DNA from: a plasmid
Sequence record: NZ_CP137560.1
DNA length: 64,000 nucleotides
Direction: 5' to 3' (one strand)
The number at the start of each line of letters is the position of its first letter. Position 1 is the stretch's first letter. Positions 35,645 to 54,267 of this stretch are shown in pieces. The notes under the pieces were generated by a model, which saw nothing but the letters and a program-made list of their open reading frames with translations, was not told the DNA's origin and searched no databases. Position numbers and translations under genes: made by a program.

Positions 35645-36799
35645 ATGAGTATAGAGATAAGAACAAGAGTGTTAAAAAATGGTAGTCAGTCGCTATACCT
35701 TGACTGCTATGAGAATGGTAAAAGGGAATATGAGGCATTGCATTTGTACCTTATTCCAGAGGTGAACGAAGACGCAAAGCGAGAGAACAAGAACGCCATG
35801 AAAAAGGCGGTCGCTATAAAGGCTGAAAGACTCCTTGGTATTCGTAAGGAGGCAAAGTCTCCAGATGAAACGGCATTAAGAAAGGCATCGCCTGTTTTCT
35901 ATGAATGGCTGCTTGATTATCACAAGGGATTGATTGACAGCCAAGCGTATTCTCAGAACTACATCAAGAATGTATGGAAGCTGATAGCCATCATGCACCA
36001 ATATATGAAATACAGCCATAAAAGTGGCATACGATTGATAGACTTCAATAAAAACGTATATATGGGCTTCTTGAACTACATGAGGGACATCTATGTTTCG
36101 CCAAAGTCTCCAAGCAACCCTCAGAAGTTGGCACAGTCCACCATGCACCAAATGCAGACCACACTCAACACCATATTGAACAAGGCGGTCAGAAACGGTC
36201 TGATAAGTGCAAATCCTTTTGCTTCATTGGATATAAGGGAAAGGGTCAGCAAGGCAGAAAGTAATATCGTTGCATTGACAAAAGAAGAGGTCATGTCATT
36301 GGCTTCCGTAGAAACAGGCAGTCCTGCAACTAAACAATGTTATATGTTCTGTTGCTTTACAGGTTTAAGACATAGTGACATATCCAACTTAAGATGGAAG
36401 GATATTCGCCAAACTGATGCGGGATTGGCTATCTATCTGCCTCGTATGCAGAAAACCAAGCACCCCATTCTGATACCATTAGGCAAAAAGGCATTGGAAT
36501 GGTTGCCCGACAGGGAAGATAAAAGTGAAGATAGCCTTGTGTTTAACACACCGCAAATCTGCAACTGTGACAGAGCCCTGAAACACATGGCAAAACGAGC
36601 TGGCATTACAAAGGTTCTCGGATTTCACACAAGTCGGCACACTTTTGGAACATTGGCTATCCTCGCAGGATGTGACATCTTGACTGTGAGCAAACTATTG
36701 GGTCATAAAAGTGTTAAGACAACACAGATATATGCTTCCGTAGCCATGCAGATGAGAGCGGATGCCGTTAAGCGAGTGGAAAAAGTATTTGGAAATTAG
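35645..36799 (+). CDS. tyrosine-type site-specific integrase, second of tandem pair, 384 aa
   Basis: HTSRHTFGTLAILAGCDILTVSKLLGHKSVKTTQIYASV; paralogous to the upstream integrase. Confidence 0.85.
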   Translation: MSIEIRTRVLKNGSQSLYLDCYENGKREYEALHLYLIPEVNEDAKRENKNAMKKAVAIKAERLLGIRKEAKSPDETALRKASPVFYEWLLDYHKGLIDSQAYSQNYIKNVWKLIAIMHQYMKYSHKSGIRLIDFNKNVYMGFLNYMRDIYVSPKSPSNPQKLAQSTMHQMQTTLNTILNKAVRNGLISANPFASLDIRERVSKAESNIVALTKEEVMSLASVETGSPATKQCYMFCCFTGLRHSDISNLRWKDIRQTDAGLAIYLPRMQKTKHPILIPLGKKALEWLPDREDKSEDSLVFNTPQICNCDRALKHMAKRAGITKVLGFHTSRHTFGTLAILAGCDILTVSKLLGHKSVKTTQIYASVAMQMRADAVKRVEKVFGN

Positions 36800-36965
36800 G
36801 GAAGAAAAGAAAGGGAGTAAGGAGGATAAAATCTCTTTATTCCCTTATTTCGTATCAAATGGGTGTAAAAGTGTGAAATATCGTTATATTTTTGCCTATT
36901 AGAGCCACATAACGAATTATTATCGCAAAATTTAATGTATATTTGCAGTAAAATTCGGTGAAAAT

Positions 36966-37172
36966 ATGAAACTGAACAGAATAAAAGATACGTTGGAAGA
37001 AAAAGGCATCTCTCAGACATGGCTTGCAAAACAGCTTGGGAAGAGCTTTAGTACAGTAAACTGCTACGCCAGGAATAAATACCAGCCAGATTTGGAAACA
37101 TTGCTTGAAATATCCAAAATTCTACAAGTCGATTTGAAGGACTTGATAACAGACGAGGACGAGCGAGAGTAA
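36966..37172 (+). CDS. XRE-family HTH transcriptional regulator (68 aa)
   Basis: ISQTWLAKQLGKSFSTVNCYARNK HTH; TATATTTG -7 box at 36942-36949. Confidence 0.6.
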   Translation: MKLNRIKDTLEEKGISQTWLAKQLGKSFSTVNCYARNKYQPDLETLLEISKILQVDLKDLITDEDERE

Positions 37173-37232: not shown

Positions 37233-39635
37233 TTGAACATGGGCATAAGCAAAGAACTTACAGAAGAGGACATCAAGTTCCGCTATATCAACGAAGCCAT
37301 CACAAGCAAGGGATGGTCAAAGGATAGTATATTCATGGAACAGAAGGTTAAATTTACTGACGGTAAAATTAGCCTTCATGGTAATCTTGTGCATAGAGAG
37401 AAACCGAAGTTTGCCGACTATGTACTTTATGCAAATAAGGCAACACCCATTGCTATTGTAGAAGCAAAGGATGCCAATCATTCTGTTTCTCATGGATTGC
37501 AACAAGCCATGACCTATGCCCAAATGCTTGATGTGAAGTTTGCATACAGTTCAAATGGTGAAGGTTTTGCCGAACATGACTTCTTGACAGGCAGGGAACG
37601 CACTTTTGCTATGAACGAATTTCCAACAAAAGAAGAACTTGTCGAAAGATATAAAAATGAGGCTAACGATGGAAACGGACTTAACGAACAAGAGCTGGCT
37701 ATTATAGAGCAGCCTTTTTGCACTGGTCAGAATATATTTCCGCCACGATATTATCAGCGCAATGCAGTAAACCGCACAGTTGGTGCCATTGCCAAAGGAC
37801 AAAACCGTGTGCTCCTTGTCATGGCAACTGGCACAGGCAAGACATATACTGCATTTCAGATTGTATGGCGTTTGCTTAAAAGTGGTTTGAAGAAGAAAGT
37901 GTTGTATCTTGCAGACCGAAACATATTGGTTGACCAATCCATACAGCAGGATTTCAAGCCATTAGAAAAGGTGACACACAAGATTGACTACTCAAAAGAT
38001 AAGAACCACTTGGAAGAACTTGGCTCTTATCAAGTGTTCTTTGCACTCTATCAACAGTTGATTGGACAGAATGATGCCAAAAACTATAAGGAGCTGTTTC
38101 CTAATCCAGACTATTTTGACCTTGTTATCGTTGATGAGTGTCATAGAGGTAGCGCAAAGGATGATAGCAACTGGCGAAACATCTTGGAATACTTTTCTTC
38201 GGCTACTCATATAGGTATGACTGCCACACCTAAAGAAACAAAATATCAGTCAAGTATTGGCTACTTTGGTGAACCAGTCTATACTTACAGTCTTAAAAAC
38301 GGAATTGAGGACGGTTTCCTTGCTCCTTTCAAGGTTATCAACATCACAACGAACATCGGTGACGAGTGGAGACCGACAAAGGGACAAAAGGATATATACG
38401 GCAACGAGATAGAAGACCGCATTTATAATAACAGCGACTATGATTATAACATTGTCATAGAAGATCGTATAAGGGAAGTTGCGAAAGAGATAACCAACTA
38501 TCTGAAAAGTACAGATCGCATGGCTAAGACCATAGTGTTCTGTGCTGATGAAACTCATGCGGAACGTATGCGTATGGCTTTGGCTAATGCCAATGCTGAC
38601 ATGTGCAAGAAAAATCCCGACTATGTGGTTCGTATAACTGGTAGTGACGAATACGGAAAAGGCAAGTTGGATTATTTCATTTCTGTTGCCGAGAAATATC
38701 CTGTCATAGCAACTACAAGTAAGTTGCTTTCAACAGGTGTTGATTGCAAAATGACAAAACTGATTGTGCTTGACCAACAAATCGGCTCTATGACAGAGTT
38801 CAAACAAATAATTGGTCGTGGCACTCGTCTTCGTGAGAAAGAAGGAAAGACATACTTCACAGTAATGGACTTCCGCAACGTAACACGATTGTTTGCTGAC
38901 CCTGATTGGGATGGACCGATTGAGATAGACCCGAATTATCCGCCTAAACCACATATTTGTCCTGTATGTGGACAGAATCCATGCGTGTGTCCCAAACCGA
39001 CACCAGAACCCTGCCCAGTATGTGGTCAGATACCATGTATTTGCCAACAACCGCCCAAACTGCCTAAGCCAATAGTCAACTCGGACGGTTGTACAGTAAA
39101 GGTCATTAACAAGGTCGTTTCTGTCTATGACACAAATGGTAAGTTGCTTCGCACGGAAAGCATTACCGACTATACAAAGAAAAGTATCATAGACACATAC
39201 GCTACGATTGATACATTCACTTCCAAGTGGCAAGAAACCAAGAAAAAGTCAGATATTGCTGAAATGCTTAAAGACAGTGGTATTGATCTTGCAGCATTGA
39301 AGCACGACCAAGACATGGACGATGTGGATGATTTCGATTTCATCTGCCATATAGCCTACGGCAAGAAAACACTTACACGACATGAGCGTGCCGAACAAGT
39401 GAAGAAACGAGACATATTCAGCAAGTATGGTGAACAGGCACGACTTGTGCTTGAAGCCCTGTTGGATAAGTACACCAAGGAAGGTGTGTCTGAATTGGAA
39501 AGCCTTACTGTGCTTGAAAATGACCCATTCCGCAAATTGGGCTCAAAGGCAAACATCGTGAAGTTCTTTGGTGGCAAGCAAGGCTATCTTGATGCCGTAA
39601 AGGAACTGGAACAATACATATATAATATAGCATAA
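37233..39635 (+). CDS. hsdR: Type I restriction enzyme R subunit (HsdR), with Cys-rich tandem insert
   Basis: N-terminal PD-(D/E)xK region (ADYVLY...IAIVEAKD), helicase motifs (MATGTGKT, VIVDECHRG), and location upstream of hsdM. Confidence 0.85.
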   Translation: MNMGISKELTEEDIKFRYINEAITSKGWSKDSIFMEQKVKFTDGKISLHGNLVHREKPKFADYVLYANKATPIAIVEAKDANHSVSHGLQQAMTYAQMLDVKFAYSSNGEGFAEHDFLTGRERTFAMNEFPTKEELVERYKNEANDGNGLNEQELAIIEQPFCTGQNIFPPRYYQRNAVNRTVGAIAKGQNRVLLVMATGTGKTYTAFQIVWRLLKSGLKKKVLYLADRNILVDQSIQQDFKPLEKVTHKIDYSKDKNHLEELGSYQVFFALYQQLIGQNDAKNYKELFPNPDYFDLVIVDECHRGSAKDDSNWRNILEYFSSATHIGMTATPKETKYQSSIGYFGEPVYTYSLKNGIEDGFLAPFKVINITTNIGDEWRPTKGQKDIYGNEIEDRIYNNSDYDYNIVIEDRIREVAKEITNYLKSTDRMAKTIVFCADETHAERMRMALANANADMCKKNPDYVVRITGSDEYGKGKLDYFISVAEKYPVIATTSKLLSTGVDCKMTKLIVLDQQIGSMTEFKQIIGRGTRLREKEGKTYFTVMDFRNVTRLFADPDWDGPIEIDPNYPPKPHICPVCGQNPCVCPKPTPEPCPVCGQIPCICQQPPKLPKPIVNSDGCTVKVINKVVSVYDTNGKLLRTESITDYTKKSIIDTYATIDTFTSKWQETKKKSDIAEMLKDSGIDLAALKHDQDMDDVDDFDFICHIAYGKKTLTRHERAEQVKKRDIFSKYGEQARLVLEALLDKYTKEGVSELESLTVLENDPFRKLGSKANIVKFFGGKQGYLDAVKELEQYIYNIA

Positions 39636-39649
39636 AATAGAAACAAAAT

Positions 39650-41161
39650 ATGAGTTTATCAAATTTCGTAAAACGAGTACGCAATATAATGCGCAATGAT
39701 GCCGGTATCAACGGTGATGCGCAACGCATAGAACAAATGGCGTGGATGCTGTTTTTGAAAGTCTATGACGAGAAAGAGAATGACTGGGAGTTGGACGATG
39801 ATGATTACAAGTCTATTATTCCAGAAGAATGCCGTTGGCGCAACTGGGCGCATGACGATGGAAGCGGTAAAGCCTTGACTGGTGATGAGCTACTTTCGTT
39901 TGTCAACAACACATTGTTTGTGGAACTCAAAAACATAGAGATAACACCAACTACCCCTATCCGTCAGGCGATTGTAAAGACCACATTTGAGGATGCCAAC
40001 CAATATATGAAAGACGGAGTTCAACTTCGTCAAGTGCTGAATGTGATTGACGGTTTGAACCTTGGTGACTATGAGGAAAGTCATGCTTTCGGTGAGATAT
40101 ACGAGACTATTCTCAAAGAAATGCAGTCGGCTGGTTCTTCTGGTGAGTTCTACACCCCAAGAGCCTTAACCGAATTTATGGCAGAGATAGTCAATCCGCA
40201 GATTGGTGAGAAAATGGCAGACTTCGCTTGTGGTACAGGAGGTTTCATCACAAGTTGGTTGGGTGAATTGGACAAGAAGGTAAAGACTGCAGAAGACCGC
40301 AAAGAGTACAATCAGTCTGTATTTGGCATAGAAAAGAAACAGTTCCCATATATGTTATGTGTAACAAACCTGTTGCTGCATGGCATTGATACACCATTGG
40401 TATATCACGACAACTCGCTTACAAAAGATGTACTCAACTATACAGACGGAGACAAGTTTGATGTTGTGTTGATGAACCCACCATACGGTGGTAACGAGAA
40501 ATCGGATGTCAAGTCACACTTCCCTTCAGATATGCGCAGTAGCGAGACTGCCGACCTCTTCATGGTGCTTATCATGTATCGCTTGAAGAAGAATGGTCGT
40601 GCAGCGGTCATTGTCCCAGACGGTTTCCTGTTTGGAGCAGACAACACAAAGATAGCCATCAAGACCAAGCTGCTTAGAGATTTCAACTTGCATACCATTA
40701 TCCGTTTGCCAGGCAGCATCTTTGCGCCCTACACTTCCATTGCCACGAACATTCTATTCTTCGACAATACCAGTGCGGAGGGTGCTCCAGAGGGCTATTC
40801 TACAAAGGAAACGTGGTTCTATCGTTTGGATATGCCAGAGGGTTACAAGCATTTCTCCAAGACAAAGTCCATGAAGTCGGAACATTGCGACCCAATCCGT
40901 GAGTGGTGGAACGACCGTAAGGAGATTATTATTGCTGATGGTGACGAGAAATCTCGTTGCTATTCAGTTGAAGACCTTATCGCCACCGATTGCAACTTCG
41001 ACTTGTGCAAGTTCCCGAAAGAGGATGAAGAAATCTTGCCTCCTGCCGAACTGCTTGCCGACTATTTCAAGAAGCGCAAAGCTCTTGATCATGAAATTGA
41101 TAAGACATTGGCGGAGATACAGCGTATCTTGGGAATAAATGTAAATGTGGACGAATTGTAA
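39650..41161 (+). CDS. hsdM: Type I R-M N6-adenine DNA methyltransferase (HsdM)
   Basis: NPPYGG motif and AdoMet-binding region FACGTGGF. Confidence 0.9.
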   Translation: MSLSNFVKRVRNIMRNDAGINGDAQRIEQMAWMLFLKVYDEKENDWELDDDDYKSIIPEECRWRNWAHDDGSGKALTGDELLSFVNNTLFVELKNIEITPTTPIRQAIVKTTFEDANQYMKDGVQLRQVLNVIDGLNLGDYEESHAFGEIYETILKEMQSAGSSGEFYTPRALTEFMAEIVNPQIGEKMADFACGTGGFITSWLGELDKKVKTAEDRKEYNQSVFGIEKKQFPYMLCVTNLLLHGIDTPLVYHDNSLTKDVLNYTDGDKFDVVLMNPPYGGNEKSDVKSHFPSDMRSSETADLFMVLIMYRLKKNGRAAVIVPDGFLFGADNTKIAIKTKLLRDFNLHTIIRLPGSIFAPYTSIATNILFFDNTSAEGAPEGYSTKETWFYRLDMPEGYKHFSKTKSMKSEHCDPIREWWNDRKEIIIADGDEKSRCYSVEDLIATDCNFDLCKFPKEDEEILPPAELLADYFKKRKALDHEIDKTLAEIQRILGINVNVDEL

Positions 41162-41198
41162 AATGTGGAACGGTGTTCCACAAATCTAAAAGATTGGC

Positions 41199-42224
41199 AT
41201 GGAGAATAAAGGTTTGACAAACATAAATGATGCTGCCTATCAGAAGTTGATAGACAACATAACCACGCTATGGGGTGAGGCGAAGTCAAAAGCCATTGCT
41301 GCGGTCAATACGGAATTGCTTGATGCCAACTGGCAAACAGGAAAGTATATTGTTGAATTTGAACAGGGTGGTAAACAAAGAGCAGAATATGGCAAAAGGT
41401 TACTTGTAAACCTTGCAAAGGATTTGACAGCAAGAAACGGAAAAGGTTTTAACCGAACAAACCTTACCTATATGCGCAAGTTGTACTTGGCTTTCCCAAA
41501 ATGTGGGACACTGTCCCACAAATTGACATGGAGCCATTATTATGAACTGTTGAAGTGTGATAATGCGCTTGAAATGCAGTTCTATTATAAGGAATCCATC
41601 AAGGAATGTTGGAAAGTTAGGGAACTAAAAAGACAGATGAAAAGTTGTCTGTTTCAGCGACTTGCACTAAGCACAGACAAGGCTGGAGTTCTTTCTTTGG
41701 CAAACGAGGGGCATCAAGTACAAACACCGCAAGACATCATCCGTGACCCTTTCGTGCTTGAATTTGCAGGACTTCCCAAACAGAAACGCTATAAGGAGAG
41801 TGACTTAGAAAAGGCTCTTAAAGACCACATGGAGCAGTTCCTTTTGGAAATGGGACGTGGTTTTGCATTTGTGGGCAGACAATACTCCATGCAGATAGGA
41901 AGCCGACAGTTCAAGGTGGATTTGGTGTTCTACCACTGTATCTTGAAGTGCTATGTGTTGATTGATTTGAAGCGAGCAGAGATAAAGCATGGTGATATTG
42001 GGCAGATGAACCTCTACTTGAACTACTTCAAAACAGAAGTGTGTCAACCTGACGATAATCCACCCATTGGCATAGTTTTGGGAGCAAGAAAAGACGAACT
42101 TCTGATGGAGTATGCCTTGGAAGGCATAACCAATCAATTGTTTGTAGCACGTTACCAACTCTATTTGCCAAAGCGTGAAGAACTGCAAGCGCAACTTGAC
42201 AAATTATTGGACGAAGCAGAGTAA
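41199..42224 (+). CDS. DUF1016/YhcG-like PD-(D/E)xK protein embedded in R-M operon
   Basis: Putative nuclease-like motif VDLVFYHCILKCYVLIDLKRAEIKHGDIGQ. Typical placement between hsdM and hsdS. Confidence 0.6.
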   Translation: MENKGLTNINDAAYQKLIDNITTLWGEAKSKAIAAVNTELLDANWQTGKYIVEFEQGGKQRAEYGKRLLVNLAKDLTARNGKGFNRTNLTYMRKLYLAFPKCGTLSHKLTWSHYYELLKCDNALEMQFYYKESIKECWKVRELKRQMKSCLFQRLALSTDKAGVLSLANEGHQVQTPQDIIRDPFVLEFAGLPKQKRYKESDLEKALKDHMEQFLLEMGRGFAFVGRQYSMQIGSRQFKVDLVFYHCILKCYVLIDLKRAEIKHGDIGQMNLYLNYFKTEVCQPDDNPPIGIVLGARKDELLMEYALEGITNQLFVARYQLYLPKREELQAQLDKLLDEAE

Positions 42225-42264
42225 CAACAATAAAATAAGGACATTTCGATTTTATAGAATAATT

Positions 42265-42771
42265 ATGAAAAGTAACATTGGAATACTAATCATTTTGTCT
42301 ATTGTACTGACTATGTGCAGTATCAATATAAATGCACAAACGGTTGGATATACATATCGACCTTTGGCTGCCGAGGGATGCAATATGAAATATAGCGTTG
42401 CAAAGCAAGATACGGCATATTACATTATCGCAACCGTAAAGTCAGACAGACTGAATTTCCTGAAAGAATCAACCATGTTGTTGAAAACATTCGATGGTGA
42501 AGTTATTAAACTTTATGGTTCTCAGATTGGTAGCGGTTCCGAAACGGCAGGTATTGTTTCTGGCAATATAGTCCTTCCAGTGACAGAAATCAGTTCTACA
42601 GCTCAATTCAAGATAAGTCCACAACAATTTGAGTTGTTGAAAAAAGGCGTGGCTAAGATAAGGTTATCTACCATACCTATTGAGCATGAGCGGACATTTG
42701 CCAAAGATAAAATAGGCAAGAAACTTTATCAGTTCTTCTTGAAGCAGAAGAATAAGGACAATGATTTCTAA
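42265..42771 (+). CDS. exported/lipoprotein-like protein of unknown function (~168 aa)
   Basis: Signal peptide MKSNIGILIILSIVLTMCSININAQ. AT-rich gene sitting between the DUF1016 gene and hsdS. Confidence 0.45.
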   Translation: MKSNIGILIILSIVLTMCSININAQTVGYTYRPLAAEGCNMKYSVAKQDTAYYIIATVKSDRLNFLKESTMLLKTFDGEVIKLYGSQIGSGSETAGIVSGNIVLPVTEISSTAQFKISPQQFELLKKGVAKIRLSTIPIEHERTFAKDKIGKKLYQFFLKQKNKDNDF

Positions 42772-42786
42772 CGATAGAAAATTACA

Positions 42787-44343
42787 ATGAACGGAAAGCA
42801 ATTAAAGAATAGCATATTACAATGGGCGATACAGGGAAAACTTGTGCCGCAAGACCCTAATGACGAACCAGCAAGCGTTTTGCTTGATAAGATTCGCCAA
42901 GAGAAAGAACGCTTGATCAAGGAGAAGAAAATCAAGCGTGACAAGAACGCATCCATTATCTACCGTGGTGAGGACAATTCCTATTATGAGAAGATGCTCG
43001 CCACAGGGGAGGTGAAGTGCATAGATGAGGAAGTGGCGTTTGATATACCACAGGGGTGGGAATGGACTCGTATAGGCAATATATTCAACCATACAAGCGG
43101 AAAGCAACAGAGTAGTAGCAATAAAGGTGGTGGAACCCCACAAAAGTTCATAACGACCTCTAATCTATATTGGGGACACTTTATCCTTGATAATGTAAAG
43201 GTTATGAATTTTACTGACGAAGAGATTAAGACTTGTTCGGCTACAAAAGGAGATTTGCTTGTTTGTGAAGGTGGTGCTGGTTATGGACGTTCAGCAATAT
43301 GGAATGAAGATTATGATATTTGTCTTCAAAATCATGTTCATAGATTGCGTCCGTGTGTTAGCGGCATATGTGAATATGTATATCATTTCATTTACCTATT
43401 GAAAGAAAGCAACAATTTGGCATCTGTTGGAACTGCCATGCCTGGACTGTCTGCAAATCGTTTGAAAGGATTACTTTTGCCTTTTCCACCTCTATCAGAA
43501 CAAAGAAGAATTGTGGCAAAGTTAGCTGAACTATTACCACAAATAGAGAAATATAATAATGTTCAGAACAAATTGGACGAACTGAACACTACTATAAAGG
43601 ATTGTCTTAAAAAGAGCATCTTACAAGAGGCAATACAAGGTAAGCTCGTTCCGCAACTTGCAGAAGAAGGCACAGCGCAAGAACTGCTTGAACAAATAAA
43701 GACAGAGAAGCAGAAACTCGTTAAAGAGGGCAAACTAAAGAAGTCTGCCCTCAAAGATTCCGTTATCTTCAAAGGTGACGATAACAAGTATTGGGAGAAG
43801 TCAACTGAATGTATGGAGTGTATTGACGATAAAATTCCATTTGAAATACCTTCAACATGGTGTTGGGTTAGGCACAATCAATTGTTTGAAATATCAGGCG
43901 GTTCACAGCCTCCTAAATCTCAGTTTGTTGATAGTCCTAAATCAGGATATATAAGACTGTATCAAATCAGAGATTATGGTTCAAATCCTATGCCTGTTTA
44001 TATACCACAAGAAAAAGCAAATAAAATAACAAAAGAAGGTGATATTATATTAGCAAGGTATGGCGGTTCTTTAGGTAAAGTCTTTTGGGCTAAAGATGGA
44101 GCATATAATGTAGCGATGGCAAAGGTAATTCCTCTTTTTGACTCTGAGTTCGTGAACAAACAGTATTTATTCTTGTTTTATCAGTCAAGCATATACCAAT
44201 ATTTAGTAAAAGATCATTCTAGAAGTGCCCAAGCAGGATTTAACAAAGACGATTTGAAGGATTTGTTTTTTCCATTGCCTCCTTTAGAGGAACAATCTCG
44301 AATTGTTGAAATATACAAGTCTGTAACAAGTATTATGAGTTGA
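42787..44343 (+). CDS. hsdS: Type I R-M specificity subunit (HsdS), expressed copy with two target-recognition domains
   Basis: Conserved repeats SILQ(W/E)AIQGKLVPQ... flanking two variable domains; C-terminal LPLPPLEEQSRIVE. Confidence 0.85.
   Translation: MNGKQLKNSILQWAIQGKLVPQDPNDEPASVLLDKIRQEKERLIKEKKIKRDKNASIIYRGEDNSYYEKMLATGEVKCIDEEVAFDIPQGWEWTRIGNIFNHTSGKQQSSSNKGGGTPQKFITTSNLYWGHFILDNVKVMNFTDEEIKTCSATKGDLLVCEGGAGYGRSAIWNEDYDICLQNHVHRLRPCVSGICEYVYHFIYLLKESNNLASVGTAMPGLSANRLKGLLLPFPPLSEQRRIVAKLAELLPQIEKYNNVQNKLDELNTTIKDCLKKSILQEAIQGKLVPQLAEEGTAQELLEQIKTEKQKLVKEGKLKKSALKDSVIFKGDDNKYWEKSTECMECIDDKIPFEIPSTWCWVRHNQLFEISGGSQPPKSQFVDSPKSGYIRLYQIRDYGSNPMPVYIPQEKANKITKEGDIILARYGGSLGKVFWAKDGAYNVAMAKVIPLFDSEFVNKQYLFLFYQSSIYQYLVKDHSRSAQAGFNKDDLKDLFFPLPPLEEQSRIVEIYKSVTSIMS
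43729..43770 (+). repeat. 42-nt exact inverted repeat (arm 1) in hsdS central conserved region
   Basis: GGCAAACTAAAGAAGTCTGCCCTCAAAGATTCCGTTATCTTC. The reverse complement occurs at 45971-46012. Confidence 0.85.
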
Positions 44344-44930
44344 TAGACAACAGCCCTGTTTGTATAGACGAGTTTTTGCCGTTCCAAATACCCGAAACAT
44401 GGGCTTGGTGCAAGGTCAAAGACCTGTTGGAAATACAAACAGGGGCTTCGTTCAAAAAAGAACAAGTAAACGCAAATAAAAAAGGCATTAGAATATTGCG
44501 TGGGGAAAATATTTTGCCCAATAAGTATATATTCAAAAATAATGATGTATTTGTGTCAGATGAGTTTGTCAATACGAATACCCTTCTGAAGAAGAATTGC
44601 ATCATTACTCCTGCTGTAACCAGTTTGGAGAATATTGGTAAAATGGCTGTGATAGAAAAAGACTACAATAATGTTAGTGCTGGCGGTTTTGTATTCATCT
44701 TTAGCCCATACATTCAAGACTTTAATCACTCCTTGTTACTTGCGTATTTTCTTCAAAGTCCATTTCTGATAGAGGCTATGCGAGGAATAACCAAGAAGTC
44801 TGGTGCTGCTTTTTATAATCTTGGGAAAGAACGACTGAAAGAGCTGTATCTACCATTGCCTCCAATGGCAGAACAAAGTAGAGTAGTAGCCAAAATAAAA
44901 GAGGTTTTATCAAGTATTATGAGCAGATAG
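44340..44930 (+). CDS. silent hsdS half-gene (single TRD + conserved C-terminal helix)
   Basis: Begins at the CIDE.LPF.IP..W.W junction motif and ends LPLPPMAEQSRVVAKIKEVLSSIMSR. Overlaps the hsdS stop. Confidence 0.7.
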   Translation: MIDNSPVCIDEFLPFQIPETWAWCKVKDLLEIQTGASFKKEQVNANKKGIRILRGENILPNKYIFKNNDVFVSDEFVNTNTLLKKNCIITPAVTSLENIGKMAVIEKDYNNVSAGGFVFIFSPYIQDFNHSLLLAYFLQSPFLIEAMRGITKKSGAAFYNLGKERLKELYLPLPPMAEQSRVVAKIKEVLSSIMSR

Positions 44931-45022
44931 GGAGCGAAATAACTGAGATTGACCTTCCTTTTGAGTTTCCAAGTTCTTGGTCTATTGCTCGATTAAATGC
45001 AGTTTGCCAACTTACAGACGGC

Positions 45023-45415
45023 TTGAAAACCACAGGCAAGCAGTGCTTGTTAGATGCTAAATACTTACGTGGTAAAAGTTCTGAAACTATTCTAGAACAT
45101 GGTAAATTTGTATATAAAGGTGACAATATAATGCTTGTGGACGGTGAAAACTCTGGTGAAGTTTTCATCGTTCCACAAGACGGTTATATGGGTAGTACTT
45201 TCAAGCAATTATGGATAAGTTCCTCTATGTACGAACCTTATATTTTGGCTTTCATACAGTTCTACAAAGAAACTTTGCGCAATTCTAAGAAAGGTGCAGC
45301 TATACCACACCTCAACAAGGAATTGTTTTATGGGCTTATTATTGGTATTCCGCCACTACAAGAGCAGAAAAGAATCTTCCAAAAGATAGAGGATTCATCA
45401 CAATTGCTCAAATAG
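45023..45415 (+). CDS. second silent hsdS TRD cassette (open frame probably extends 5' to ~44933, without a start codon)
   Basis: Ends GIPPLQEQKRIFQKIEDS. Preceded by the EIDLPFEFPSSW junction motif in frame. Confidence 0.6.
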   Translation: MKTTGKQCLLDAKYLRGKSSETILEHGKFVYKGDNIMLVDGENSGEVFIVPQDGYMGSTFKQLWISSSMYEPYILAFIQFYKETLRNSKKGAAIPHLNKELFYGLIIGIPPLQEQKRIFQKIEDSSQLLK

Positions 45416-46762
45416 AGTTTCAATTCTTTCGACAATGCGTTTCTGCTCATTTAAAGGAGGTAAAGGTATCAAGTGCTCAACTAATTTGACACGTGATATG
45501 TTTGGTTGGGCACCACCTTCACCTTTCTTGATAAATGTATCTCGACTTGCCATTAAGAAATAAAACAAGAACCAATTATAAACAATATAGGGAGTACAGC
45601 CACAACACGCTTGATTGGTAGTTAATTCCTTGCCTACAATAGCCAACTTTCCTATTGTAGCTCCATACATAGCAATAAGAACGTCACCTATTTTATTCAT
45701 ACGTAGAGAGCATTCTTGAAAAGCTCTCTGCGTTATTCTTTCTTCAGTATCACATATGACACCATTGTTCAACTCCCCTGTTTTAAGCCACAAAATATTG
45801 CCTCCATAATAATCTTGGTTGCTGCGCTGAGGTGTAGAACCTGCGCCCCAATCTCCAATCTGTCCCATTCTTGTCCAAGTCCAACTATTAGGGATTTCAA
45901 AGGGAATTAGCTCTGTTATATCCAAGCATTTTTTGCCTATCTGCTCATAATACTTGTTATCGTCACCACGGAAGATAACGGAATCTTTGAGGGCAGACTT
46001 CTTTAGTTTGCCCCCTTTTACGAGTTTCAGCTTTTCTTCTTTTATCTGTTTGAGCAGATCTTGGGCTGTACCTTCTTCGGCAATTTGCGGAACGAGTTTG
46101 CCTTGGATGGCTTCTTGCAGAATAGCCTTCTTCAAGCGTTGGTACATATTAGAATTTAACTTATTAAGTTCTTCTTGCTTATTGCTGTAAATACCAAGAA
46201 AATGTGTTAACTCTGTAATGTTCGCAACAATTCTTTCCTGTTCATTTATTGGTGGTAAAGGGAACAACAAAGTTTCCCAATTACCCCTATTGATTATAGG
46301 GGTTGCTGTTCCTGTAGCCTTATCCATTATTGCCAACCTAAAGTATTCTGAATGCAAAACTATATGGACAAACTCCACATTACACAAATAGGGCGTTATA
46401 GAATTTATCTGCTGATTAAAAGTAACAGGCTTGTCTGTTATGGCGCATTTACCAATAGAACCTCCAATGCAGACTTGCAAAATAGTATTCTTTGGTACAA
46501 TACGCCCATAATCAACTCCAATATCTGACAATCCCTGTGTTACACTTACAATTTTGGAATTTAGTATGTTTGCAGGACCTAAAAATGGAATATAATCACC
46601 AAAGTATTCAGGATGAGATTTGGATGGTGTTGTACCTGTTTCTGTTTTTCCAACCTCAACTAATCTACACCATTCCCACCCCTGGGGTACCTCAAACGGT
46701 ATCTCCTCATCAATACATTTCACCTTCCCCGTAGCAAGCCACTTCTCATAATAGGAACTCAT
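45398..46762 (-). CDS. inverted hsdS copy (two TRDs), 5'-truncated relative to the expressed hsdS
   Basis: Starts within the conserved SYYEKWLATGKVKCIDEEIPFEVPQGWEW region. Contains the conserved central repeat ILQEAIQGKLVPQIAEEGTAQDLLKQIKEEKLKLVKGGKLKKSALKDSVIF. Confidence 0.8.
   Translation of the reverse strand: MSSYYEKWLATGKVKCIDEEIPFEVPQGWEWCRLVEVGKTETGTTPSKSHPEYFGDYIPFLGPANILNSKIVSVTQGLSDIGVDYGRIVPKNTILQVCIGGSIGKCAITDKPVTFNQQINSITPYLCNVEFVHIVLHSEYFRLAIMDKATGTATPIINRGNWETLLFPLPPINEQERIVANITELTHFLGIYSNKQEELNKLNSNMYQRLKKAILQEAIQGKLVPQIAEEGTAQDLLKQIKEEKLKLVKGGKLKKSALKDSVIFRGDDNKYYEQIGKKCLDITELIPFEIPNSWTWTRMGQIGDWGAGSTPQRSNQDYYGGNILWLKTGELNNGVICDTEERITQRAFQECSLRMNKIGDVLIAMYGATIGKLAIVGKELTTNQACCGCTPYIVYNWFLFYFLMASRDTFIKKGEGGAQPNISRVKLVEHLIPLPPLNEQKRIVERIETLFEQL
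45971..46012 (-). repeat. 42-nt exact inverted repeat (arm 2)
   Basis: Reverse complement of 43729-43770. A second, ~80% identical inverted pair covers the N-terminal conserved regions (~42990-43075 vs ~46665-46750). Confidence 0.85.
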
Positions 46763-46822
46763 AGAACAAATCCATGCCTATTTATTAGGACAACTTAATG
46801 TTTCACTAATAAACGAATAGAA

Positions 46823-47629
46823 ATGGAATTAGACAAATTTGAAGAGTTCCTAAGCCAAGGCAATATGGCTAAGAACACGATTTCGGCATATCTGTATGCT
46901 GTGAAGGAGTTTGGCTCTCGACACAAAGAGTTGAACAAGAGAAACCTGTTGATTTACAAGACCTACTTGATTGAGACTTACAAGCCCAAGACGGTGAACC
47001 TCCGTATTCAGGCGATGAACAAGTACCTTGTATTTGTAGGCAAGACGAAACTCCGCTTGAAGTCGGTCAAGGTGCAGCAACGTTCTTATTTGGAGAATGT
47101 CATCAGCAATGCCGACTACACCTTCCTGAAGAACAAGTTGAAGAAGGAAGACAACTTGGAGTGGTACTTTGTGGTGCGTTTCTTGGCTGCGACTGGTGCC
47201 AGAGTGAGCGAACTTGTGCAAATCAAAATTGAGCATGTGCAAGTAGGCTATTATGACATCTACACCAAGGGTGGCAAGATACGGCGTATCTATATCCCCA
47301 AGACATTGCGCACGGAAACAGAAAAGTGGTTGCAGACACTCAACCGTACAAGTGGCTATCTCTTTCTCAATCGCTTTGGCGAGCGCATCACGACAAGAGG
47401 CATATCACAGCAGTTGAAGAACTATGCGGTGAAGTATGGCTTGAATGAGAAAGTGGTTTACCCTCACTCATTCCGCCATCGTTATGCCAAAAATTTCTTG
47501 GAGAAGTTCAACGACATTGCCCTGCTTGCAGACCTTATGGGGCATGAAAGCATCGAAACGACACGTATCTATCTACGAAGAAGCAGCATTGAGCAACAAG
47601 AGATAGTTGACAAAGTGATAACCTGGTAA
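46823..47629 (+). CDS. tyrosine recombinase (XerD-like) adjacent to hsdS cassettes; likely hsdS invertase
   Basis: C-terminal HSFRHRYAKNFL...LMGHESIETTRIYL catalytic signature. 268 aa. Confidence 0.8.
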   Translation: MELDKFEEFLSQGNMAKNTISAYLYAVKEFGSRHKELNKRNLLIYKTYLIETYKPKTVNLRIQAMNKYLVFVGKTKLRLKSVKVQQRSYLENVISNADYTFLKNKLKKEDNLEWYFVVRFLAATGARVSELVQIKIEHVQVGYYDIYTKGGKIRRIYIPKTLRTETEKWLQTLNRTSGYLFLNRFGERITTRGISQQLKNYAVKYGLNEKVVYPHSFRHRYAKNFLEKFNDIALLADLMGHESIETTRIYLRRSSIEQQEIVDKVITW

Positions 47630-47761
47630 TCGGAGCATATTCTATATCTTTTGATATGTTATCCATGCTATTAAACTATGCAAACGAGTATATGCTTTTT
47701 ACAACAAGTAGAATTGATTATCAGCGTTTTGCATTACCTTTGCACTCAAAAGGAAATACGC

Positions 47762-48709
47762 ATGGGACTATTCAAGAAGATAAAAGACATATTCAGCAAC
47801 GACAAAGGCAAGGAGACAAACACGCAAGAGAAAGTTTCCTTGCCTTCTTCTATAAATGTACCTCAACAGTCCATCAAGCAGCCTTTGGTAATGCCTGGTG
47901 TTACAGAGGTTATAAAGGCAAGGTCATATCTGAAAGCAAATGACACAGAACAGACTAAATGCCAATACGAGAGTGCGGTTCAAAAAGGATATTCATTGAA
48001 CCTTGAACCCTATAATTGGCTACTTCGCCATTATACAAGCAAAGAACAATGGAGCGATGCCAAGCGTGTTCTATTGCTTGTCCCTGCAAAATTCAGCCAA
48101 GATGCGCTTGTTGTCGAATTTAGGGAAGTAATAAGGCAACGAGAAGACAAACTACCCAAACAAGCCAATCTCCACAGAAACATTACCACCAAAGATACAT
48201 TGGCAAACCGATACAAAAGTTTGATTGCTCAACTGCCCGAATTTGATTTCTATACAAATGGAAACGACACATTGTTTTCAGAAGACGTTCCAGTGTGCCA
48301 TCAGATAGAAGATATAATCAGCCATATAGAGAATGAACTACGCAAGGCAAAGGTTGCCGAAAAAAGCAAGGATTACATCACTGCAACCAATATCTATGAA
48401 GAGCTGATTGCCAATGGCTATTGGAAGCCAGAGCCTTACAACCGTCTGCTTTATATCTATGATAAGGCAGGGCTTACAAATGGTATAAAGGAGTTGCTTA
48501 TTCTTGCAATAAGTTTCTTTGAAAATCAGCAAAAGAAACAGAAACAGGAATTGTTACGCCTTGCCGACAAGTACAAAAGCAGAGCCTATGCAGAGGCGAA
48601 AATAAATCAAGGAAAGACAGTGGCATATTTCGATGGTTTCTTTGAAATATACATGCCTTTCCCTGATATTGATGTCTGGAAGCGAATACTCGCTGATACT
48701 ACCGCTTAA
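47762..48709 (+). CDS. hypothetical protein with TPR-like helical repeats (~315 aa from MGLFKK)
   Basis: ORF only. Convergent overlap of a few bp with the relaxase 3' end. Confidence 0.35.
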   Translation: MGLFKKIKDIFSNDKGKETNTQEKVSLPSSINVPQQSIKQPLVMPGVTEVIKARSYLKANDTEQTKCQYESAVQKGYSLNLEPYNWLLRHYTSKEQWSDAKRVLLLVPAKFSQDALVVEFREVIRQREDKLPKQANLHRNITTKDTLANRYKSLIAQLPEFDFYTNGNDTLFSEDVPVCHQIEDIISHIENELRKAKVAEKSKDYITATNIYEELIANGYWKPEPYNRLLYIYDKAGLTNGIKELLILAISFFENQQKKQKQELLRLADKYKSRAYAEAKINQGKTVAYFDGFFEIYMPFPDIDVWKRILADTTA

Positions 48710-50135
48710 TGCCCGAACTCTTTTTGGGATAGTGTTTGCTGTGGGCGAATCTCATGCAGCGTCTGGCAAAGCTGAAAATATCCTCGTCCTTATCCCTCCA
48801 AGGCAATTCCGAATTGGAGCCACCGCCACCTCCCGACTGCGTGATGCTTGTTGCCCCATTGATGCCCTCAATGAACATCTTGACGGCTGTGCCAAGTACA
48901 TCTTTGAAACGCATATCGCACATATCTTCAATAATGGTGTTCTCTGCCATTTTCTTGGCTTCGGGTACATTGGCGCAAATTCTACTGCTCATCGTCAGCA
49001 GTTCTTGAAAACTGCCTGCAAGGATAGAGGCTTGGGCGTATGTTTGCAATGTCCGTGAAGTCTGCTCCTGCACGACACGCAAAGTTTCAGCCTCAGACTT
49101 CTGCGCCCTTGTCATGGCTCTGAACTCGGCAAGGGCTTCATCGGCTGCACTCAGTTTTTCTCGTTTGTCCGTCAGTTTGAACTCCAAGGTGGACAACTGA
49201 CTTTTGAGCCGTTCCAGTTCTTTTGACAACTCGGAATGTTCGCCATTCTGTTGTTCCAACAATTTCTCAACCTCATGAATTTTATTCTCCACCTCGGACT
49301 TCTGGTGAGTGAGGTTTTCTATCATCGTTTTCAGACCTTTAACGGCATTCTCCTTTCTGCGAATGTCAAGTTCCAGTTTGCCATTTGCGATTTCCAACTC
49401 ACGGCTTTCGGCTTGGAGTTGTCTATACCATTCGTCACGAGGGACATGCTGGGCATTGGTAGCCGAAACTGATTCGCCACGTACCAAGCCCCACTTTTTG
49501 TTGACCTCTGCCAAGTAGTCGTGGATAGCATCCAGTTTGTTTGCGTCACCACCAAAAGTATCTCGGTATTTGATACGCATCTTCTGTTTCTTTTCATCGT
49601 ACATAATTGGCGTGACAAGGCAATGGATATGCGGTGAAGACTCGTCAAGATGAACGGAAAAGTCTATGATGTTGTCTTCGCCCCATGCATCGGCAACAGC
49701 CTTGTAGATGTCCTTTGCCCACAATTCTATCTCCGCTTTGCGCTTGACATGACTGTTGTCTGCGCCTTTCGCTCGCTCCACATTTTGGTCTCCGAAAGCC
49801 ATTTCTCGCATTCTGTCGGCATCGCCCGAAAATATCATGTTGCAGGCAATGCGATATTTGGGCGTTTCAAGCCCTTTGTTAGGGTCTTCCGCACCAGTGA
49901 CTTCCAAACGGTCTTGAAACCGCTCCAAAATGGGCTTAGAAGAGCCGAGAGGTACAATCTTACCGCCCTTGACTATCTCAAAGTTGAGATGCGCACGGCT
50001 CTTGTCGTAGTTAAACTTCTTGTTGGAGGCTTTTGCTTCCCATTGGGATTCCGTCCAACGCCTCTGATGTTCGTTATCTTCACCTGCCGAAAACGACTTG
50101 ACGGCTTGTTGGTGAAACACTTGGTATTCTGGCAT
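48699..50135 (-). CDS. mobilisation relaxase (Bacteroides MobB-type)
   Basis: HLDESSPHIHCLVTPI histidine-triad motif. Coiled-coil middle. Gly-run plus RDKDEDIFSFARRC C-terminal motif shared with the relaxase at 62741-63964. Confidence 0.75.
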   Translation of the reverse strand: MPEYQVFHQQAVKSFSAGEDNEHQRRWTESQWEAKASNKKFNYDKSRAHLNFEIVKGGKIVPLGSSKPILERFQDRLEVTGAEDPNKGLETPKYRIACNMIFSGDADRMREMAFGDQNVERAKGADNSHVKRKAEIELWAKDIYKAVADAWGEDNIIDFSVHLDESSPHIHCLVTPIMYDEKKQKMRIKYRDTFGGDANKLDAIHDYLAEVNKKWGLVRGESVSATNAQHVPRDEWYRQLQAESRELEIANGKLELDIRRKENAVKGLKTMIENLTHQKSEVENKIHEVEKLLEQQNGEHSELSKELERLKSQLSTLEFKLTDKREKLSAADEALAEFRAMTRAQKSEAETLRVVQEQTSRTLQTYAQASILAGSFQELLTMSSRICANVPEAKKMAENTIIEDMCDMRFKDVLGTAVKMFIEGINGATSITQSGGGGGSNSELPWRDKDEDIFSFARRCMRFAHSKHYPKKSSGIKR

Positions 50136-53085: not shown

Positions 53086-54267
53086 ATGGGACGAAAGAAG
53101 AAGGAAATCCGTTTGAAGGAGCCAGTGCGCATCCGAGAAAAGAAGATAGCTGGTGGCAACATCAGCCTCTATCTTGACATTTACCAAAAGGGATTGAGAA
53201 AGAAAGAGACGTTGAAACTCTATCTTGTGCCAGAAATCAACGCTGCTACCAAGTTGCAAAACGCCAATACAAGAAAGTTGGCAGAGCAAATCAAGGCGCA
53301 GCGCATTCTTGACATCCAGAGAGAGGGTCTTGTGGATTGGGACAAGGTGAAGAAGTCACGCATGACACTTACCAAGTGGATGGATGACTTTGTGAAGTAC
53401 AATGCCGAGTTGTCTGAGTCTTCCATGAAGACAAAGCGCAACACTCATGCTCGCATTGACCAATACCTATTACATATAGGCAAGCCAGAGTTTCTGTTGA
53501 AAGACGTGGACAAGGAGTTTTGCAAAGGCTTCATTACTTTTTTGAAGACTTGCACCTACAATGATGGAAAGAAACAACTCAGCACCACCACTTGCCGTAT
53601 GTTCGTCAACTATTTCGGCTCGTCATTGGCAAAGGCAGTAAGGGACGGACTGATTGAGCAAAATCCATTCTTGCTGTTGGAGGCAAAGGAGAAGCCACAG
53701 AAGCGAGTGGCTGAGCGTGAGTTTCTGACGATAGAGGAAATAAAGAAGGTGATGAACACACCATGCCGTTATGAACTGGTGAAGAAAGCCTTTCTATTCT
53801 CCTGTTTCACCGGTCTGCGATATAGCGACATGAAAGCCTTGAACTGGAGTGAAATCCACAAGGCTGCTGACGGCAAGACAGAATACATTGACCATATCCA
53901 AGTCAAGACCAAGGATAGAGTAACCATCCCCTTGTCGGAAGAAACAAAGAAGTGGATGCCTAAAAGAGAAGAAGGCATAGACAACATCTTCCACAACTTG
54001 ACAATCACATCTACAACTGTAGAAGTGGTGCTGAAAGAATGGATGGAGGCAGCAGGAATAACCAAGCATATAACCTACCATTGCTCACGACATACAGCGG
54101 CTACGATGCTCCTGACTCTTGGTGCAAGTATCTATGTAGTAAGCAAGATACTTGGACACAAGAGCATCAAGATGACGGAGATTTACGCGAAGATAGTTGA
54201 CAAGAAGAAGTTGGAAACCGTGAACCTCGTGAACGGAATGTTTGACCAAATACCAGTAATACAATGA
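53086..54267 (+). CDS. tyrosine-type site-specific integrase (393 aa)
   Basis: HCSRHTAATMLLTLGASIYVVSKILGHKSIKMTEIYAKI. Homologous to the 34454-35620 integrase. Confidence 0.85.
   Translation: MGRKKKEIRLKEPVRIREKKIAGGNISLYLDIYQKGLRKKETLKLYLVPEINAATKLQNANTRKLAEQIKAQRILDIQREGLVDWDKVKKSRMTLTKWMDDFVKYNAELSESSMKTKRNTHARIDQYLLHIGKPEFLLKDVDKEFCKGFITFLKTCTYNDGKKQLSTTTCRMFVNYFGSSLAKAVRDGLIEQNPFLLLEAKEKPQKRVAEREFLTIEEIKKVMNTPCRYELVKKAFLFSCFTGLRYSDMKALNWSEIHKAADGKTEYIDHIQVKTKDRVTIPLSEETKKWMPKREEGIDNIFHNLTITSTTVEVVLKEWMEAAGITKHITYHCSRHTAATMLLTLGASIYVVSKILGHKSIKMTEIYAKIVDKKKLETVNLVNGMFDQIPVIQ

Follow-up and report, generated by a model that had tools for sequence, protein, structure and literature searches.

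Surveys have found hundreds of loci in Bacteroidetes, and others across bacteria, in which a Type I restriction-modification (R-M) system varies its specificity gene, hsdS (PMC7394358; PMC9881135). The nearest counterpart of the locus described here is Bfa9343I of Bacteroides fragilis NCTC 9343 (BF1839-BF1843/BF9343_1753-1761). Besides hsdR and hsdM it has a gene for an XRE regulator and a nuclease-like one; its four hsdS genes or part-genes hold six modules, and a gene for a tyrosine invertase lies next to them. With four pairs of repeats, each 16-47 bp long, it can adopt 16 configurations and yield 2 x 4 = 8 alleles; the inversions were detected by polymerase chain reaction (PCR) and the allele-specific motifs through SMRT (single-molecule real-time) sequencing (PMC7641763; PMC7672463). 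A further Type I locus, CP046428.1:3453614-3464013, was confirmed by long reads (Milman et al. 2023; PMC9881135). Here we analyse a locus of this kind in a 64,000-nucleotide (nt) stretch of the plasmid sequence record NZ_CP137560.1 (the whole stretch is called the window below). It occupies positions 37233-47629 and ends in hsdS, further hsdS modules and a tyrosine recombinase gene.

With a probability of about 0.9, this locus encodes a phase-variable EcoAI-like Type I R-M system whose specificity gene is rebuilt by nested reversible inversions. An earlier note, made from the letters of the window alone, had proposed that inversions shuffle target recognition domains (TRDs) into the expressed hsdS. 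This proposal is directly supported by six arrangements of the modules in public assemblies and by a chimeric HsdS that was predicted from the window and recovered at 100% identity. The note's stress on long repeats as the places of exchange did not hold: the observed crossovers lie in a 16-nt core and in a 19-nt block just downstream of a 43-nt repeat.

Modules and repeats of the hsdS locus

HsdS is built of two repeats, in each of which a TRD follows a conserved helical region. The full hsdS of the window accordingly reads, in order, N-terminal conserved region, first TRD (TRD1, here T1a), central conserved region and second TRD (TRD2, here T2a). In the translation and in the inverted repeat, the N-terminal region (ILQWAIQGKLVPQ...GEDNSYYE) is paralogous to the central region (ILQEAIQGKLVPQ...GDDNKYWE). 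Two single-TRD cassettes, A and B (T2b and T2c), follow in the same orientation, and a two-TRD copy, hsdS', lies on the opposite strand with the order T1b, central conserved region, T2d (Table 1). hsdS' lacks the first ~62 residues of hsdS, which form the N-terminal conserved region, and is followed by the recombinase gene. This layout downstream of hsdR and hsdM is the one that the earlier note had described, and the open reading frames (ORFs) and Methylase_S matches agree with it. All the elements of its gene list are present; the list had passed over a YhcG/DUF1016 gene and a 168-residue (aa) ORF between hsdM and hsdS.

Translated in the KYYE frame, cassette A starts with NKYYELIDNSPVCIDE and ends with SSIMSR and a stop. 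Cassette B starts with KYYEQIGSEITEIDLPFEFP and ends with SSQLLK and a stop, and its own frame has no start codon; its 3' end overlaps that of hsdS' tail-to-tail by 18 nt. The motif CIDE..PF.IP..W.W, which had been assigned to each cassette, is complete in cassette A, whereas cassette B has EIDLPFEFPSSWSI. All TRD2-type modules start at ...KYYE or ...KYWE. Pairwise identity among the six TRDs is just 23-34%, which makes six distinct half-specificities plausible.

The cassette junctions are dual-coded. The junction DNA AAGTATTATGAG encodes K-Y-Y-E for the downstream module and, in another frame, the S-I-M-S that ends the upstream module. At both cassette junctions, the stop codon of the upstream module (TGA or TAG) comes from the first codons of the downstream one.

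The locus contains exact inverted repeats of 43, 21, 19, 16, 16 and 15 nt. One of the 16-nt repeats is the pair of N and N' cores: TTCCTATTATGAGAAG has two exact copies in the window, which form this inverted pair, against a chance expectation of 0.03 matches at up to two mismatches (chance counts for the cores were made over the whole 64 kb). The N and N' cores stand at the outer edges of an 88-nt inverted pair of 82% identity (42978-43065 vs 46670-46757), the second pair of about 80% identity that had been reported earlier. The 13-mer CAAGTATTATGAG has three exact copies in the 64-kb window, every one within the locus. The exact inverted matches differ from site to site: the 19-nt block GGTGACGATAACAAGTATT of the expressed hsdS has its exact inverted partner at 45949-45967, J1 lies in a 16-nt exact inverted repeat (44324-44339 vs 45944-45959), and J2 is a 21-nt exact inverted repeat with 45936-45956. 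The C-class cores at 43785, 44327 and 44911 are in direct orientation. N-class and C-class sites have TATTATGAG in common, and the four bases to its left are TTCC in the N class (TRD1 exchange) vs CAAG in the C class (TRD2 exchange).

The perfect inverted repeat in the central conserved region is real, but it measures 43 nt rather than the 42 nt first given. In simulations, the probability of so long a perfect run within 192 aligned nt that are 83% identical was ~0.009. In 89 related loci that have two such sites, the median length is 22 nt for the exact match anchored at the core and 25 nt for the longest exact run. The 43-nt block is atypical, is no general feature of related loci and may represent a local conversion tract. 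The antisense ORFs with KITESLRADFFSLP are present and are by-products of the repeat, as the earlier note had held.

Table 1. Features of the hsdS locus, followed by the upstream operon genes and flanking genes, with positions in the window.
Feature	Position	Strand	Remarks
hsdS, full, expressed slot, 518 aa	42787-44343	+	two Methylase_S stretches, E = 3.8e-33
N core TTCCTATTATGAGAAG	42978-42993	+	TRD1-swap crossover site; outer edge of the 88-nt, 82% inverted repeat
Perfect inverted repeat, 43 nt	43728-43770 vs 45971-46013	+ vs -	exact; lies within the central conserved region
C site of the expressed hsdS	43774-43797	+	19-nt exact block GGTGACGATAACAAGTATT then GGGAG; core variant CAAGTATTGGGAG at 43785-43797
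J1 core CAAGTATTATGAG	44327-44339	+	cassette A 5' junction; other frame overlaps the last hsdS codons and stop (SIMS, stop)
Cassette A (T2b), single TRD2-type module	44325-44930 (ORF 44340-44930)	+	Methylase_S, E = 1.2e-14
J2 site	44911-44931	+	cassette B 5' junction; 13-nt core at 44911-44923
Cassette B (T2c), single TRD2-type module	~44912-45415	+	Methylase_S, E = 1.6e-10
hsdS', silent-slot copy, 454 aa	45398-46762	-	two Methylase_S stretches
C' core CAAGTATTATGAG	45944-45956	-	partner of the C, J1 and J2 sites
N' core TTCCTATTATGAGAAG	46742-46757	-	exact inverted partner of the N core; 66-81 nt upstream of the recombinase start
Tyrosine recombinase, presumed invertase, 268 aa	46823-47629	+	divergent from hsdS'; Pfam Phage_integrase (PF00589), E = 1.9e-26
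XRE-type helix-turn-helix (HTH) gene	36966-37172	+	presumed operon head; Pfam HTH_3, E = 4.7e-11
hsdR, EcoAI/FtnUII-family (Type IB-like) restriction subunit	37233-39635	+	NCBIfam NF046051; Pfam ResIII, EcoEI_R_C, HSDR_N_2
hsdM, N6-adenine methyltransferase subunit	39650-41161	+	Pfam N6_Mtase, E = 5e-62; HsdM_N
YhcG/DUF1016 PD-(D/E)XK nuclease-like gene	41199-42224	+	between hsdM and hsdS; Pfam YhcG_C, E = 4.4e-61; DUF1016_N, E = 1.2e-42
168-aa ORF	42265-42771	+	hydrophobic N-terminus; ends 15 nt 5' of hsdS
TraM	31678-32922	-	left of the locus
Tandem Arm-binding tyrosine integrases	34454-35620, 35645-36799		left of the locus
Mob_Pre relaxase	48699-50135	-	right of the locus
Second tandem integrase pair	53086-54267, 54264-55424		right of the locus

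Rearranged loci and crossover sites

We gathered 194 loci by look-up of the exact recombinase protein, by scans of genome and metagenome collections for its relatives and by look-ups of contigs carrying HsdS variants. The loci were classified with module probes derived from the window, and modules of 95-100% identity to the window are called near-identical. In the notation, N5 stands for the 5' end of hsdS, which is fixed, T1x for a second TRD1 unlike the T1b of the window, and > or < for the orientation of a module.

Among loci with near-identical modules (99-100% identity for those compared), six arrangements predicted by inversion were found. Arrangement 0, the window's own order, is represented by L169. 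In arrangement 1 (L168 and L092), a J2 x C' inversion has swapped and inverted T2c and T2d; the inverted segment of L168, 99.4-99.8% identical to the window, has its limits exactly at the 21-nt repeat 44911-44931/45936-45956. Arrangement 2 (L106, L170-172, L174 and L004) is the N x N' inversion of the whole block, with T1a-T2a beside the recombinase. The inverted segments of L168, L170 and L106 are all delimited by the inverted repeats of the locus. Arrangement 3 (L173 and L175) combines arrangements 1 and 2 and has cassette B in the expressed TRD2 slot, in both loci at no less than 95% identity; cassette B occupies that slot in L091 also. Arrangement 4 (L190) is the C x C' product, with T1a-T2d in the expressed slot, and arrangement 5 (L191-194), N5-T1x-T2a>T2b>T2c><T2d-T1a, corresponds to one N x N' and one C x C' inversion.

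The T1a-T2d chimera, which joins TRD1 of hsdS to TRD2 of hsdS', had been predicted from the window before it was found as a 518-aa protein (P0121) with 100% identity and coverage. It also exists as a 456-aa silent-slot form (P0183). Likewise, the T1a-T2a pair was found with 100% identity in two forms, expressed with 518 aa and truncated with 456 aa, the latter on at least 13 other contigs. Because the predicted chimera was found beside the other arrangements, five of the eight predicted expressed alleles have now been seen with near-identical modules.

More distant relatives, with TRDs of about 90% identity, carry cassettes A and B in every orientation and in the expressed slot, which in L102 is occupied by a relative of cassette A. 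Complete related loci fall into the orientation classes 3+/1-, 1+/3- and 2+/2- and into shufflon length classes of ~2.2, 2.7, 3.2 and 3.8 kb, with 2-4 cores. Contigs tend to break here: 81 of 160 fetched contigs terminate within the ~4-kb shufflon, and in 37 of those 81 a core lies within 150 nt of the end. The offsets between contig end and core are often k-mer-like (exactly 42 nt in twelve contigs), which fits branching of the assembly graph caused by coexisting orientations. Two further relatives, P0152 and P0180, are ~620-aa HsdS proteins with a GIY-YIG nuclease domain (PF01541), possibly through fusion or through read-through into an adjacent gene.

Flank markers place the crossovers within short segments. 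For the TRD1 swap, all nine loci with T1a in the silent slot change markers inside the 16-nt core TTCCTATTATGAGAAG: they are of the silent-slot type up to the N core and of the expressed-slot type from the first diagnostic base after it, and the remainder of the 88-nt repeat travels with its TRD1. For the TRD2 swap, 79 distinct cassette junctions of related loci have only CAAGTATTATGAG in common, with the flanking contexts reassorted. The C x C' exchange can be followed in five T1a-T2d junctions. All five keep the markers of the window's hsdS in the central region, including 43771-43773, the three bases that separate the 43-nt block from the 19-nt block GGTGACGATAACAAGTATT, and all five turn hsdS'-type at an AT/GG dinucleotide. 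This pattern places the crossover within 43774-43792. The 43-nt repeat itself was rejected as the C x C' crossover site for the recombinants seen, because 43771-43773 stay with TRD1 in each of them and because the block is atypical in the 89 loci. The AT/GG dinucleotide is perfectly linked to the downstream TRD2 cluster, and if a single position served all C-class events it would fall within CAAGTATT. Related loci also contain mosaic central conserved regions linked to the same TRD1, which indicates that some exchange has occurred deeper in the conserved region over evolutionary time.

The two C-class variants are distributed unevenly. Of 70 KYWEK modules (GG-type, core CAAGTATTGGGAG, like T2a), 69 occupy slots linked to a central conserved region; KYYE modules are found 113 times in cassette slots and 89 times in linked slots. 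We considered whether the GG core locks T2a to T1a, which would leave four alleles only, and rejected this: GG-type TRD2 clusters have up to 11 TRD1 partners each, and T1a-T2d and T1x-T2a recombinants exist. As GG-type modules change their TRD1 partners, their sites are recombination-proficient. Two explanations of the asymmetry remain. A cassette junction and a GG-type site have only 8-11 nt in common; alternatively, selection may act on the predicted product, since a GG-type module has no out-of-frame stop and, placed behind another TRD2, would lengthen that protein by roughly 50 residues. A state-graph simulation yielded 24 configurations with all sites equivalent and 16 with GG-type modules barred from cassette slots, with eight alleles both ways.

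The recombinase, the proposed mechanism and its alternatives

The recombinase aligns with archaeal XerA (4a8e, E = 1.6e-23) and has the full set of catalytic residues, with R127, K149/152, H215, R218, H241 and Y250 conserved and intact. The label 'XerD-like' given to it earlier is apt at the level of fold and superfamily. It fails at a finer level: the protein scores far below the NCBIfam cutoffs for XerD (TIGR02225, 95.5 vs 329.6 bits) and XerC (TIGR02224, 101.7 vs 335.15), and with 139.6 bits it does not reach the cutoff of 220 for XerA (NF040815) either. It is thus classed here as a predicted Xer-fold invertase, not as a Xer orthologue. Its relatives number 313 among species genomes and at least 511 among metagenome contigs. 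In the contig CDYZ01031230.1 (L109, 1987-8935), two inverted recombinase copies flank hsdS cassettes, which could be a real duplication or an assembly chimera formed across the inverted repeats.

The gene and the N' core belong together. Among the 53 species genomes with enough sequence upstream of the recombinase, 50 have an N' core with at most two mismatches there, 48 of them at 62-70 nt upstream. Of these 50 cores, 46 are exact, whereas identity among the recombinases goes down to 83%. Given this linkage and the intact catalytic residues, the adjoining recombinase is the most likely catalyst. Three loci (L017, L033 and L041) encode a recombinase of 94-98% identity with no N' core within 400 nt upstream; they are perhaps rearranged or decayed.

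We propose the following mechanism. The only hsdS that would be expressed is the one ending the operon HTH-hsdR-hsdM-yhcG-orfX-hsdS, which has both the N-terminal conserved region and the operon position. The other four TRD modules would be kept in silent storage, as the two cassettes and as the two TRDs of the truncated inverted hsdS'. Recombination between the N-class sites (TTCCTATTATGAGAAG), one in hsdS and one inverted in hsdS', would flip a 3.7-kb block and change TRD1. C-class sites (CAAGTATT followed by ATGAG or GGGAG) mark the 5' end of every TRD2-type module, and any two opposed ones could recombine and exchange the TRD2 modules downstream. By successive inversions, 2 TRD1 x 4 TRD2 = 8 expressed combinations would be reached through 16-24 DNA configurations. 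Each combination would have a different bipartite N6-methyladenine (6mA) target, and the cell's restriction barrier and methylome would change with it. The adjoining 268-aa tyrosine recombinase would catalyse the inversions.

Several observations weigh against this account. From anatomy we infer the expression of hsdS and the silence of hsdS' and the cassettes, and hsdS' retains the conserved ATG. We likewise infer the role of the recombinase, and in B. fragilis the enzyme is also genetically unproven (PMC7641763). Three predicted alleles, T1a-T2b, T1a-T2c and T1x-T2b, were not seen with near-identical modules in public assemblies. As the arrangements stem from different samples, they might in principle be differences fixed between strains, and a comparison of the sample lists of the 518-aa and 456-aa forms for both orientations within one sample found no shared sample. 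Two sample series each show one stable arrangement (ERR106414xx, 18 contigs; SRR8535xxx, at least 20 samples), so switching is not fast enough to break every assembly; either it is slow, or one form is dominant in those populations. Finally, with only one of 70 GG-type TRD2 modules in a cassette slot, the site pairs may not all be equivalent.

The different samples and the two stable series would suit a static array of hsdS paralogues and remnants, whose arrangements would go back to rare rearrangements or to horizontal transfer from strain to strain instead of programmed reversible switching inside one lineage. The second TRD1 does differ between otherwise near-identical elements, so inter-element exchange does occur. 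We nevertheless regard a static array as very improbable. The modules of the six arrangements are 99-100% identical, and inversions that break at the predicted cores are all that separates one arrangement from another; in related loci the cassettes show all three orientation classes, and half of the fetched contigs break in the shufflon, often exactly at a core. A like architecture inverts within clonal B. fragilis cultures (PMC7672463), and a Type I locus that agrees in gene order and has an HsdS of 517 aa was confirmed by long reads (PMC9881135). It is also conceivable that the inversions are real and the catalyst is not the adjoining recombinase; RecA-dependent homologous recombination, an element integrase or a global invertase elsewhere could do the work. 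In Streptococcus pneumoniae, long-repeat inversions continue without the locus recombinase (background cited in PMC9881135), and in B. fragilis three nearby tyrosine recombinases are candidates, none of them proven (PMC7641763). The window encodes four further tyrosine integrases, but these large Arm-DNA-binding proteins look like typical element integrases. Exchange inside the conserved region, as in the mosaic central regions with the same TRD1, would suit homologous recombination; the cassette junctions, however, match their partner over only 13-21 nt and the N-class crossover is confined to the 16-nt core, and such short shared cores are the signature of site-specific, not homologous, recombination. 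As the recombinase and the N' core also form a conserved unit (50/53 species genomes), we think another catalyst improbable.

A third alternative adds to inversion rather than replacing it: the same sites might also drive excision or deletion, and switching might partly proceed by excision and reintegration, as at the pneumococcal tvr locus. As now arranged, the C site, J1 and J2 repeat each other in direct orientation, and cassettes would leave as circles if these sites recombined. The number of cassettes varies among related loci (length classes ~2.2-3.8 kb, 2-4 cores), and excision-reintegration is documented at hsdS loci (PMC7672463; PMC6265443). Inversions alone, on the other hand, account for all six arrangements, and deletion is disfavoured by many invertases. 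Neither a circular junction nor a deletion derivative of the element itself was seen, no search being aimed at them. We consider a contribution of excision unlikely and retain nested reversible inversion as the account of the locus.

Operon, mobile context and relation to known systems

The genes upstream of hsdS are those of a Type I R-M operon. Two Bacteroides-type -7 motifs (TAnnTTTG), found by a simple motif search, lie at 36887 and 36938, just 5' of the HTH gene; the search gave no hit in the 60-nt spacer ahead of hsdS' or immediately ahead of either cassette, A or B, which is weak evidence. HsdR scores 1086.6 bits against the NCBIfam equivalog NF046051 (cutoff 550) and covers model positions 1-768 of 768; its start is likely the ATG at 37239, and gene callers give 798 aa for hsdR of related contigs. 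Judged by the family matches of HsdR, HsdM and the two-TRD HsdS, the predicted system is of the EcoAI-like or Type IB-like kind. The YhcG/DUF1016 gene is kept in related loci, and DUF1016 genes are reported to be enriched beside targets of programmed inversion (PMC9881135). The 168-aa ORF has no match in Pfam and NCBIfam scans, and a 168-aa gene is called at the same position on related contigs. A 26-nt direct repeat with a hairpin (AAAATGTGGAACGGTGTTCCACAAAT) occurs in the hsdM-yhcG spacer (41160-41185) and inside yhcG (41498-41523) with 85% identity.

By its gene content the region looks like a mobilizable element nested in or beside a conjugative transposon, with TraM, a Mob_Pre relaxase and two tandem integrase pairs around the locus. 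Directly 3' of the recombinase lies a 343-aa ORF (47678-48709) without a match in Pfam and NCBIfam; a gene of 315-343 aa is in the same position on most related contigs that reach so far. HsdS proteins of 518 aa and 100% identity (P0001-P0003) are found in records of Segatella hominis (labelled plasmid), Bacteroides ovatus and Phocaeicola massiliensis. Identity across three genera points to a mobilizable element and recent transfer between genera. A PLSDB plasmid search with the 10.8-kb locus gave no match, though one source labels the identical HsdS plasmid-borne.

The family is abundant in human gut Prevotellaceae and Bacteroidaceae. Switching of hsdS alters which incoming DNA and phages are restricted and, in addition, the genome-wide 6mA pattern; in other species, changes in this pattern alter gene expression (phasevarions). 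Since the locus is apparently on a mobile element, it may have effects on susceptibility to phages, on gene flow and on the heterogeneity of strains in the gut. On a practical level, the shufflon breaks short-read assemblies, and the crossover mapping yields concrete minimal sites for the invertase. More tentatively, and at somewhat less than even odds, one small invertase and two minimal site classes may make up a portable module of eight specificities. The TTCC and CAAG flanks could separate the two kinds of exchange, the dual-coded junction could explain the slots of KYWEK modules (69/70), and the whole could act as a shifting, transferable barrier that is spreading in gut Bacteroidales.

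The earlier note had likened the locus to other phase-variable Type I systems, and the architecture of Bfa9343I does match. Both have an XRE gene at the operon start, a full two-TRD hsdS, two single-TRD half-genes, a two-TRD hsdS without its 5' end and an invertase gene, and our restricted simulation arrives at the same 16 configurations and 8 alleles. There are also differences. In B. fragilis the hsdS genes are shorter (1119 and 1143 bp vs 1557 bp here), the nuclease-like gene stands between hsdR and hsdM rather than between hsdM and hsdS, and the four repeats are mutually dissimilar, whereas all sites here share TATTATGAG. With as many as 20% mismatches allowed, the window has no match to IR1-IR4 of Bfa9343I (PMC7672463). 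Since it has no copy of the B. fragilis repeats, and since the hsdS genes of B. fragilis are shorter, the locus is best classed as an analogue of Bfa9343I in another Type I family (EcoAI-like), not as an orthologue. The locus CP046428.1, as described in PMC9881135, has HsdR-HsdM-HsdS with a DUF1016 gene between the core genes, an HsdS coding sequence of 1554 nt (1557 nt here) and a span of ~10.4 kb, as for 37233-47629 here; judged from that published description, it may belong to the same family. A literature search for copri, hsdS and inversion found no paper on this locus family in Segatella/Prevotella copri.

In SpnD39III of S. pneumoniae (ivr/cod, CreX/PsrA), too, an expressed hsdS is rebuilt by tyrosine-recombinase inversions with silent partial hsdS genes; SpnD39III has several repeat classes, including one of 15 bp, and allele-specific methylomes (background, and the introduction of PMC7672463). 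It differs in having six alleles from three hsdS genes, in its Type I family and invertase clade and in being chromosomal in a Gram-positive pathogen. In the window, by comparison, the TRD2 pool is widened by same-strand cassettes with dual-coded junctions. Mycoplasma pulmonis hsd1/hsd2 and the R64 pilV shufflon are further systems of multiple inversion, in which a single recombinase works on several short sites and so reshuffles an expressed gene's 3' or 5' segments; they belong to other organisms and other recombinase families, and R64 has another target gene as well. Phase-variable Type I systems are already well described, and the known picture is unchanged by this locus. The analysis is useful for what it adds: minimal sites, a dual-coded junction, an asymmetry between GG and AT, and a mobile context that spans genera.

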